Virus record (IMG/VR): IMGVR_UViG_2728369593_000002
DNA length: 28,060 nt
Reading direction: 5' to 3' (one strand)
Origin: a virus
Taxonomy: Duplodnaviria; Heunggongvirae; Uroviricota; Caudoviricetes
In this document: piece by piece, positions 1,277 through 5,014 of the stretch
How the letters are laid out: every line of letters begins with the position of its first letter
Position numbering within the stretch: the stretch's first letter is position 1
Notes under the pieces: generated by a model
Seen by the model: only the letters and a program-made list of their open reading frames with translations
What the model was told of the DNA's origin: nothing
Database searches by the model: none
Program-made: the position numbers and the translations under genes

Positions 1277-1399
1277 TTTCGTGTTGGCGAGTTGGCGGGA
1301 GTTAAGTAGAATTGCTGCGGGTGCTTGAGGCTATCTGCCTCAGGCATGAACACCAAAGGCAGATAGAGAAAAGCCCCAGTTAACATTACGCGTCCTGCA

Positions 1400-2560
1400 A
1401 GACGCTTAACATTAATCTGAGGCCCAATCTATGTCTCACAAATGTAGGTTAGCCTCTTACGTGCCGAAAGGCAAGGAGATGTATGGGTCCACCACATATT
1501 GCAATTTTTATTCTCTTTTAAAATATATTCCACGGGCGTCATTAGTGCGAGCGCCTTGTGGGGTCTTTTGCTGTTATACAGCACCAGATATTCCGCCAGC
1601 TTCTGGTTAAATAGCGCCAGATCTTCAAAGAGTAAAATCTCATTAAATTCAATAAACTGCTCTCTTAACGTCCGGTTAAAACGTTCACAGATAGCGTTCA
1701 TTTTTGGCGTGTAGGGATAGGTCCAGAGGTGTTTGATAGCGGCTTCCTGCAGCGTTTTGTCGAAGTTTCCCAGGAACTCTTTTCCGTTATCTGTGATTAT
1801 CTGGCTGATACCGACCGGGAACAACCGGGCTGCGCGGCTGAAGAAGTGATTGACGATATCACTGTTGAGTGACGGCACAGCCAGCGCCAGCGCGTAATTG
1901 CTGCATTCGTCGATCATGGTGATGACATAGCGACGCAGTTCGCCCATTCTGAGCTCAATGGCGTCCATCCCAATGAGCTCACCTGTCTTTGCCGGGCGGT
2001 AGTGCTTTGGCCTGCGGGGTTTGGCAGACCGCTTTTTGACAAGCAGTGCCTTCCCCCGCGATCCCAGACGCACAGGTATCATCCGCATTTTATCATGTGC
2101 GGCAGCGATCATTCTGCCGATGGTGGAAACACTCGGACAGGCCAGATAGCGCTGTTCGCACCAGGGCTTCAGGCGAACAAAAATCTGCTCTTTACCGAGG
2201 TTCGGCAGCTCTGTCCTGAGGCGTCGAATCTCTTTCAGCACATCGGGATGCCAGTGTTTTTTTCGTCGCACCAGAGGTGCCTTACTGTGCGGGATTAGCC
2301 CCTCAGGTCCTTCCTTGTTCAGTAACTGACGCCACCAGTAAAGCGTGCGGCAGGACACGCCAAAGGCTTCAGAAGCTGCAGAAATACCGTGTTTATCCCA
2401 GAAGTGCAGAGCCTTCATTCTCATTGTTGCTATATCAGCCATCACTGAAAGCCTCAACGCATAATCGGCCGTTTGGTAGTACTTAGGATAGCCAACCATC
2501 AGATGCTGCATTTGCATAGTGCAATCTCCACTTACTTATCCGGAGGCAATTGCAATATCT
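1400..2560 (-). mobile_element. IS481-family-like insertion sequence (boundaries approximate; terminal inverted repeats not identified)
   Basis: Lone minus-strand transposase gene inside an otherwise + strand phage operon. Approx. 1.1 kb unit consistent with the IS481 family. Confidence 0.45.
1429..2517 (-). CDS. DDE transposase, IS481-family-like (N-terminal HTH plus rve integrase core)
   Basis: 362 aa with IITDNGKEF and YNSKRPHKAL motifs typical of rve-core transposases. GGAG Shine-Dalgarno upstream of the ATG on the minus strand. True start could be an internal Met (MADIATM...). Confidence 0.8.
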   Translation of the reverse strand: MQMQHLMVGYPKYYQTADYALRLSVMADIATMRMKALHFWDKHGISAASEAFGVSCRTLYWWRQLLNKEGPEGLIPHSKAPLVRRKKHWHPDVLKEIRRLRTELPNLGKEQIFVRLKPWCEQRYLACPSVSTIGRMIAAAHDKMRMIPVRLGSRGKALLVKKRSAKPRRPKHYRPAKTGELIGMDAIELRMGELRRYVITMIDECSNYALALAVPSLNSDIVNHFFSRAARLFPVGISQIITDNGKEFLGNFDKTLQEAAIKHLWTYPYTPKMNAICERFNRTLREQFIEFNEILLFEDLALFNQKLAEYLVLYNSKRPHKALALMTPVEYILKENKNCNMWWTHTSPCLSARKRLTYICET

Positions 2561-2588
2561 CTGTGAACTTACACAGGAGAAGCAGGCT

Positions 2589-2744
2589 ATGAAGCAGCAA
2601 AAGGCGATGTTAATCGCCCTGATCGTCATCTGTTTAACCGTCATAGTGACGGCACTGGTAACGAGGAAAGACCTCTGCGAGGTACGAATCCGAACCGGCC
2701 AGACGGAGGTCGCTGTCTTCACAGCTTACGAACCTGAGGAGTAA
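2589..2744 (+). CDS. hokD: Hok/Gef family type I toxin, 51 aa (HokD/RelF-like)
   Basis: MKQQKAMLIALIVICLTVIVTALVTRKDLCEVRIRTGQTEVAVFTAYEPEE has the Hok transmembrane helix and conserved C..C..E periplasmic tail. AGGAGA Shine-Dalgarno 8 nt upstream. The listed 2550..2744 ORF is the same frame with an N-terminal extension. Confidence 0.85.
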   Translation: MKQQKAMLIALIVICLTVIVTALVTRKDLCEVRIRTGQTEVAVFTAYEPEE

Positions 2745-2813
2745 GAGACCTGGTGGGGGAGAAATCCCTCGCCACCTCTGATGTGTCAGGCATCCTCAAT
2801 GCACCCGCACTTA

Positions 2814-2836
2814 ACCCGCTTCGGCGGGTTTTTTGT
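2814..2836 (+). terminator. intrinsic terminator downstream of hok
   Basis: ACCCGC-TTCG-GCGGGT hairpin followed by a T6 run. Confidence 0.6.
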
Positions 2837-4744: not shown

Positions 4745-4770
4745 CTCAATCTGTTATCCGGGGCTATATT
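4741..4770 (+). promoter_or_regulatory. pR'-like late promoter: -35 TTGACT (4741-4746), 18-bp spacer, -10 TATATT (4765-4770)
   Basis: Sigma-70 consensus-like hexamers abutting the Q stop codon, the position of pR'/qut in lambdoid phages. Confidence 0.5.
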
Positions 4771-4831
4771 CCTCACGCGTCAGCAAAATCTGGCGTCGGG
4801 ATTGGCGTCCTGGATAGAGACCGCGACAGAT

Positions 4832-4857
4832 ACACGCCGCGAGCGTGTTTTTTATTG
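4832..4857 (+). terminator. tR'-like intrinsic terminator about 60 nt downstream of the pR'-like promoter
   Basis: ACACGC-CGCGA-GCGTGT hairpin followed by TTTTTTATT. Confidence 0.5.
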
Positions 4858-5014
4858 TCGTATGCACGCGCACATCTGAATTATGGTGGGCTGTGTGGGG
4901 GCGGAGAGATCCGCGCCGGTCGGTTTCCCGGTTACGCCAACCCTGCACAGTTCACCACCAGATGATTGGCGTCGTCGGTGGTGAGTTATTAAGAAACCAC
5001 CAGAGGGCGTCATT

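Follow-up and report, generated by a model that had tools for sequence, protein, structure and literature searches.

An ISKpn28-related IS481-type insertion sequence in a prophage hokD locus and its apparent register with sigma-70 promoters

The hokD locus and its insertion sequence

The viral record IMGVR_UViG_2728369593_000002, analysed as a single window of 28,060 nucleotides, holds a prophage whose early region is lambdoid and whose late region is of the myovirus type. It carries a hokD-type hok/sok locus into which a 1095 bp insertion sequence (IS), probably of the IS481 family, is inserted on the minus strand (1480-2574). The toxin gene itself is intact. The hokD open reading frame (ORF) at 2589-2744 on the plus strand encodes 51 amino acids and matches the Pfam family HOK_GEF (PF01848) with 82.9 bits over residues 6-47 (E 1.2e-23, cut-off 22); near-identical records bear the PGAP name hokD. 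The hok frame of the original prediction, made from the sequence alone, is confirmed by both. Its Shine-Dalgarno sequence, AGGAGA (2575-2580, plus strand), lies 8 nt 5' of the ATG. On the 3' side follow the fbi element CCTCAATGCACCC (2794-2806, plus strand), complementary to the 5' element tac at 1319-1330 with a duplex energy of -26.6 kcal/mol, and the intrinsic terminator of the hok mRNA found by a terminator scan (2813-2836, plus strand). The IS fills the DNA directly upstream of hok, with its right tip (2574) 14 nt from the hok ATG. The start codons of hokD and of the divergent transposase ORF are 71 nt apart, in agreement with the distance of about 70 bp predicted for an IS481-type transposase.

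The ends of the IS were set by comparing four unrelated contexts, i.e. the window, an ldr array (L004), the yegH-galF spacer (L005) and a ColV plasmid (L006), and by an empty site. The terminal inverted repeats are imperfect and 27 nt long, begin with TGT and contain a perfect 11-nt core; they extend over 1480-1506 at the left end (TGTATGGGTCCAC...ATATTGCAATT) and over 2548-2574 at the right end (AATTGCAATAT...GTGAACTTACAC). The uninterrupted hokD locus of strain STEC308 (L003) represents the empty site. Because this locus is colinear with window positions 1290-1479 plus 2575-2850 and carries AGGAGA once, the insertion is clean and has produced a 6-bp target-site duplication (TSD). The left copy of AGGAGA occupies 1474-1479 and the right copy is the hok Shine-Dalgarno sequence. 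The alignment to the empty site thus defines both the repeats and the TSD, and perfect 6-bp TSDs are found wherever both flanks can be seen at unrearranged sites.

The transposase ORF (1429-2517, minus strand) comprises 362 codons, 346 of them inside the IS; the hok leader contributes the other 16 together with the stop. It contains a helix-turn-helix and the domains rve and rve_3, the latter two above the Pfam thresholds. The NCBIfam model NF033577 (IS481) is by far the best curated family (E = 5.4e-66; 223.0 bits, just under the cut-off of 224), and the IS3 family model is left far behind with 98.7 bits. PGAP labels on copies of the transposase vary between 'IS481 family transposase' and 'integrase core domain-containing protein'. 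The frame has no stop codon inside the IS, its final codon there being flush with the left tip. The tail encoded by the flank accordingly differs among sites, from 16 amino acids in the window to between 2 and more than 100 elsewhere (L004, L005, L013, L118, L127). Since the stop codon comes from flanking DNA, PGAP often calls the gene partial. In the window the frame crosses the putative sok promoter (Psok) and stops at 1429-1431, overlapping the ATG of mok. The IS as a whole is about 76% identical in nucleotide sequence to an ISKpn28-type element.

The original prediction saw no mok/sok control region and assumed that the IS occupies the space of the hok promoter, mok and sok. This part does not hold: the control region is displaced, not absent, as the IS landed inside the leader at the hok Shine-Dalgarno sequence and moved an intact control region to 1284-1479. 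The colinearity with the uninterrupted locus supports this. The Rfam family RF01794, which is named sok and models the hok mRNA leader in sense orientation up to the hok AUG, matches in full length at 1319-1485 on the plus strand (114.3 bits, gathering score 59), and the final 6 nt of this match are IS sequence. The match lies 1.1 kb away from hok. Six nucleotides before its first position, a promoter scan places the only sigma-70-like site of the region 1200-2900, TTGGCG-17-TAGAAT (1284-1312, plus strand), which is the promoter-like site of hok (Phok). The leader now severed from hok (1319-1479, plus strand) contains tac (1319-1330), the Sok target region and the mok start.

The uninterrupted allele has a mok-like frame of 70 codons (MSHKCRLASYVPKGKEKQA followed by Hok), which begins 57 nt upstream of hok in the same reading frame. 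In the window the first 16 codons of this frame remain (MSHKCRLASYVPKGKE, 1431-1478, plus strand); it is cut after codon 16, enters the IS and ends at 1610. Leader, mok frame and hok are not contiguous here, with the IS intervening, and the locus is a disrupted member of its kind. In the predicted fold of the reconstructed mRNA (417 nt), tac at the 5' end pairs with fbi at the 3' end.

On the minus strand a hexamer scan detected sok promoter-like hexamers (1446-1474), with a -35 of TTGCCT (1474->1469), a 17-nt spacer and a -10 of TAACCT (1451->1446). They are consistent with the promoter register at other insertion sites described below. The region 1362-1440 of the same strand encodes a putative Sok-like antisense RNA with a free 5' tail, a long hairpin and a U-run; its fold reaches -32.5 kcal/mol (z = -5.8 against 200 shuffles). 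Hexamers and hairpin thus survive to the left of the IS. Neither of the two observations named beforehand as refuting the original prediction was made: no sok promoter and antisense RNA between 2520 and 2590, and no IS ends well clear of the hok leader.

The locus is split into a left part with Phok, tac, the Sok target, the mok start and the sok gene region, and a right part with the Shine-Dalgarno sequence, hok, fbi and the terminator. Because neither a promoter nor translational coupling to mok remains, hok is probably silent. The sok gene to the left of the IS probably works, so that Sok would still be made. Transposase mRNA reading out of the IS through Psok would end inside the sok region, probably at the Sok terminator. 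Of the earlier suggestion of a silenced copy, the IS481 element beside, not in, the toxin frame stands and silencing is most likely; the supposed loss of the control region does not stand. Taken singly, the locus is an ordinary IS-disrupted hok.

Two alternatives would leave hok expressed. An outward-reading promoter in the IS could now drive hok free of mok/sok control, as the original prediction had considered. In its favour, the Shine-Dalgarno sequence and the reading frame of hok are both undamaged, the ATG being 14 nt from the IS tip, and a -35-like TTGCAA lies 18 nt from the tip, a hexamer that also serves as the -35 of the orzO promoter at a locus where an IS footprint remains. TTGCAA lacks a partner, however: no -10-like hexamer is found 16-19 nt from it, the junction reading ACAGGA/AGGAGA, and two scans of 2380-2600 detected no sigma-70-like promoter facing hok. 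That 55 complete genomes and 14 viral contigs keep this allele with the hok ORF undamaged is likewise hard to reconcile with a toxin driven in this way, and an outward promoter is very improbable.

Alternatively, hok could still be expressed and regulated by read-through from Phok across the IS, in an mRNA of about 1.5 kb with tac and fbi at its ends. Both elements are intact, and the terminator scan predicted no intrinsic terminator on the plus strand, either within the IS or between 1319 and 2813. Such a transcript would, however, have lost the coupling of mok and hok. Its mok frame ends at 1610, and the following stretch of about 980 nt would be untranslated and antisense to the transposase gene. 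Long untranslated antisense stretches favour Rho termination and RNase III cleavage. Read-through expression of hok is quite unlikely on this evidence, if somewhat less so than an outward promoter. A translational block by a hairpin joining the IS end to the hok Shine-Dalgarno sequence was also considered and rejected, the hairpin being weak (-7.6 kcal/mol, z = -0.9).

Recurrent insertion and apparent register with promoters

The IS is mobile. Among 5426 complete E. coli genomes it occurs at 1671 places in 1218 genomes, with the highest load, 38 places, in strain IAL7255 (NZ_CM130730.1). Beyond E. coli, a scan of genome contigs recovered the exact IS end only in E. albertii. The same complete genomes comprise 3865 with an intact hokD-type locus, 55 with an IS-split hokD locus and 1165 with a relE-hokD junction of the K-12 type. 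Strains A25, ETEC4073 and Z1323CEC0007 are examples with the split allele. In viral contigs the hokD site holds 14 of 18 IS copies.

The same TSD and the same junctions are present in all split hokD alleles, as would be expected from one ancient insertion passed down with the prophage, in which case the shared position would say nothing about targeting. This is extremely improbable. The IS is 99.7-99.8% identical in hokD alleles that show only 94% or 79% leader identity to the window, empty sites matching the flanks at 98-99% identity are frequent, and other hok subfamilies carry the IS with different TSDs. Because the IS copies are near-identical while the leaders have diverged, the same hokD site must have been hit repeatedly.

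A metagenome scan for the right end of the IS returned 119 matches, and 37 distinct right flanks were counted when the ldr locus L004 is included. Eight of these 37 contain a complete Hok-family ORF whose start lies 4-16 nt beyond the IS tip; they encode HokD, two R1-like Hoks, a HokE-like protein (two sites), a HokA-like and a SrnB-like protein and one divergent Hok. A ninth flank, taken from the complete-genome locus L004 and not from the scan, has an Ldr ORF 14 nt from the tip. The right end of the IS faces the toxin in all nine flanks. At least nine hok genes show a single IS orientation and a TSD starting 4-16 nt before the ATG. When the ISKpn28-type relatives are counted as well, the element lies 0-16 nt upstream of at least nine different hok genes and of ldr, with its orientation unchanged throughout.

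Complete genomes provide cases with both flanks. In the ldr array the order is rdlD, TSD, IS, TSD, ldr. Between cysH and iap, in 36 genomes, a sok leader is followed by AGACAT, the IS and AGACATG, the last joined to a hokE-like gene. A plasmid hok beside psiA has both flanks present as well. The 76%-identical ISKpn28-type element is located at the homologous AGGAGA of a different, Klebsiella-type plasmid hok locus. ISKpn28 has been mentioned incidentally as lying 'upstream of hokG' in IncHI5 plasmids (PMC6339943). Literature on IS481 or ISKpn28 in connection with hok or with promoter targeting yielded incidental mentions only and no general statement.

The insertion sites share a register with promoter-like sequences. 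The 6-bp TSD begins with A in 35 of 37 sites and is usually preceded by CA; read outward from the left end of the IS, the TSD plus this CA gives TTG. The hexamer that starts from the complement of TSD base 1 is -35-like, and a -10-like hexamer follows 16-18 nt later. Examples at antitoxin genes are Psok (TTGCCT-17-TAACCT), the rdlD promoter PrdlD (TTGTAA-17-TATTCT) and the orzO promoter PorzO (TTGCAA-17-TATAAT, at a locus with a 20-nt IS footprint). Sites outside toxin-antitoxin loci include TTGACT-17-TATCGT, GTGACA-17-TATCGT, TTTACT-17-TATAAT and TTGAAA-16-TTAAAT. The predicted starts of PrdlD and PorzO agree with the 5' ends of the Rfam matches to the antitoxins.

A promoter was scored when the -35 matched in at least 4 of 6 positions, the -10 matched in at least 3 of 6 with A2 and T6 present, and the spacer was 16-18 nt. 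At the exact register, 8 of 14 independent site classes pass, compared with a background rate of 0.55% among positions in general and 7.4% among those with TTG. Seven of ten sites gathered after the criterion had been fixed also pass (p ~1e-6 by our own arithmetic on the TTG background). Further copies from complete genomes pass in three of three cases (TTGACA-17-GAGTAT, TTGCAA-17-CATACT, TTGCCA-17-GATAAT), new sites from viral contigs in four of seven. The position-wise, ungapped majority over 23 site classes reads TTGACA, 17 nt, T-A-t-A-a-T.

The sites thus suggest that this clade of IS inserts 5 bp upstream of -35 hexamers of the sigma-70 type, in a fixed register, co-oriented with the promoter and leaving it intact. 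The register is a pattern in the sites themselves; the mechanism of targeting we infer from it. We give about even chances to the proposal that the ISKpn28-like clade integrates at this position under the guidance of promoter-bound RNA polymerase, or through a transposase that reads TTGACA in a sigma-like manner, with Psok, PrdlD and PorzO among the favoured targets. In such type I loci the constitutive antitoxin promoter lies just upstream of the translation start of the toxin. Insertion upstream of it would spare that promoter and detach the toxin ORF from its leader, and at hokD the targeted promoter would be Psok, located at the hok Shine-Dalgarno sequence. The position and orientation of the IS at hok would then be explained because antitoxin promoters adjoin the toxin start in hok, ldr and zor loci. 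As a whole, we hold it to be probable that this hokD-type hok/sok locus, part of a lambdoid prophage, was split by transposition of an ISKpn28-related IS481-family element at a position set by this promoter register.

Several points weigh against this reading. The sok promoter-like hexamers match the consensus at 7 of 12 positions, and they are assigned to Psok by homology of position with plasmid R1. The silence of hok and the continued synthesis of Sok are inferred from sequence, and read-through from Phok, considered above, would leave hok regulated. The promoter criterion was picked after the first 20 sites had been seen. Many insertion sites come from metagenome or viral contigs with one flank only. 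Nine of the 23 site classes are not promoter-like, several of these being without a TSD and some rearranged. Finally, survivorship of harmless or toxin-disarming insertions could add to the enrichment.

Carried further, the last point becomes an alternative in its own right, according to which the IS has no true target preference and its positions at hok, ldr and promoters reflect selection for disarmed toxins or harmless DNA. Insertions at such positions are expected to be neutral or beneficial, nine of the 23 site classes are not promoter-like, and unrelated ISs have also hit hok loci in K-12 (IS186 downstream of hokC, PMC3562002). Selection by itself, however, predicts hits throughout some 350 bp and in both orientations; the insertions seen at nine or more hok genes all point the same way, and their TSD starts 4-16 nt before the ATG. 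The -35 register is exact to the base, the -10 signal stands far above the TTG-matched background, and the TSD beginning with A and preceded by CA points to a choice at the level of sequence. We regard selection without targeting as unlikely, though it is the strongest of the alternatives considered here.

Two other candidates for the target signal were rejected. A small hairpin 5' of the TSD is present in hokD, at L118 and partly in ldr, with inconsistent geometry, and was dropped for the -35 register. The only plain sequence motif that the sites share, YCA|A (GGCA|AG in hok leaders), is too short to account for the specificity.

Further copies, the K-12 relE-hokD junction and other observations

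Several further copies of the IS have features of their own. A metagenome zorO-orzO locus (L015, 357-384) contains a 20-nt footprint, ATATCTCTGTGAACTTACAC, identical to the right tip of the IS. The footprint sits right at TTGCAA, the -35 hexamer of the orzO promoter, and the native E. coli zor-orz locus (L168) lacks it. Older copies, about 93% identical, are fixed in the yegH-galF spacer and in the iroB-iss region of ColV plasmids in many genomes and plasmids, the ColV copy lacking a TSD. At one locus (L088) the right flank of the ColV copy is joined to an ldr/rdl leader at the left, which indicates recombination between IS copies. Two copies in direct orientation bracket about 2 kb at another (L044, 1183-3184) in a layout like that of a composite transposon. 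A prophage hot spot, GTTTCA|ATRCTC, next to TTGAAA-16-TTAAAT, has been used both by the IS type of the window and by the 76%-identical ISKpn28-type (viral contigs L136, L150, L151, L158). In E. coli 2015C-4136CT1 a 99.7%-identical copy in the sseA-sseB spacer (L169) has sseA on one side and the IS128/ryfA (timP toxin) RNAs on the other and adjoins a perfect TTGACA firing toward sseA.

The Qin prophage of K-12 carries the same hokD gene (relF), located downstream of relBE and in the same orientation. Its homology to the intact locus begins at the first A of AGGAGA, which corresponds to window position 2575, i.e. the start of the right TSD (L007/L131). Here a segment bearing relBE replaces both leader and IS; no IS remnant and no hok leader were detected in 10 kb of Qin. 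The relBE segment ends at ...GCGTTGACA in three contexts, namely at the Qin hokD, at a pndA-like hok and in unrelated plasmid sequence. The pndA-like hok is found on the IncI1-type plasmid pSTEC2018_166-c (L128/L130, 1700-2720), where the junction again falls at the Shine-Dalgarno sequence and a duplicated second pndA-like copy of 235 bp keeps its native leader. On this plasmid the ydfW-flxA-ydfV-relBE segment is 99.6% identical to K-12 over 2080 bp. The third context, pEC21Z063-100K (L129, 1700-1800), is a mosaic plasmid region and uninformative.

In its behaviour the ydfW-flxA-ydfV-relBE segment resembles a discrete unit. Its interpretation as a transposon with inverted repeats was considered and rejected, as a matching left repeat was not found. 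The K-12 relE-hokD spacer was also examined as a diverged IS end; it has no homology to the right end of the IS, and no remnant of the element was detected in 10 kb of Qin. The K-12 arrangement may descend from an IS-split allele, a link that is suggestive and unexplained.

Elsewhere in the window, Rfam matches to c4-a1b1 (4764-4816), isrK (4777-4853) and C4 antisense RNA (4879-4962) lie just downstream of an antiterminator-like ORF in the late-control region of the prophage. The region 4764-4962 looks like an antisense immunity module of the P1/P7 type or a module of the isrK type.

Comparison with known systems

Disruption of hok loci by ISs is known from E. coli K-12. Work by Pedersen and Gerdes from 1999 reportedly describes hokA with IS150 and hokC and hokE with IS186 as IS-inactivated. 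The locus in the window resembles these K-12 loci in having an IS near, not inside, an intact hok frame and in the broken long-range organisation of the hok mRNA. It differs in the element and in its position. At K-12 hokC (gef), IS186 lies downstream, on the 3' side, and disrupts fbi (PMC3562002), whereas in the window an IS481-family element lies on the 5' side at the Shine-Dalgarno sequence and separates the whole leader from the ORF. Unlike the K-12 cases, this position recurs across many hok subfamilies.

The closest known element is ISKpn28, which has been reported 'upstream of hol' in Klebsiella prophages (PMC6908951), probably at the hot spot GTTTCA|ATRCTC that both elements use. Besides the sequence identity of about 76%, ISKpn28 and the IS of the window share identical terminal 25-30 nt, a 6-bp TSD and the use of AGGAGA in plasmid hok. 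The IS of the window is a distinct variant of E. coli and E. albertii. The papers on ISKpn28 (PMC6339943, PMC6908951) give its insertions singly and draw no rule regarding hok or promoters.

That hok/sok loci are broken by ISs is thus known; what is new is the base-precise, oriented insertion of one clade next to promoters, among which type I antitoxin promoters are favoured. For the single locus the analysis corrects the idea of a lost control region. More generally, a single IS clade has disrupted many hok genes, as well as ldr, repeatedly and to the exact base. Its transposase is often annotated as partial because the stop codon falls outside the element. If the register reflects the mechanism of transposition, it would explain chromosomal hok loci with an IS beside, not in, the toxin frame, would amount to a 'safe-harbour' strategy not described for bacterial ISs in the literature searched, and might offer a natural tool that marks active promoters. 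True promoter targeting would also account mechanistically for the frequent separation of hok and ldr toxins from their leaders by an IS. The literature searched contains no description of targeting to the edge of sigma-70 promoters for any IS, and this would be the first promoter-targeted insertion by a bacterial IS.

Other mobile elements target recurrent genomic signals. IS1397 and ISKpn1 insert into REP/BIME palindromes, class C group II introns at terminators, and Ty3/Tf1 at eukaryotic promoters. The IS clade of the window would resemble them in the fixed register beside a recurrent signal and in an insertion that is kept harmless. Unlike in IS1397/ISKpn1, the group II introns and Ty3/Tf1, the signal would be the upstream edge of bacterial sigma-70 promoters.

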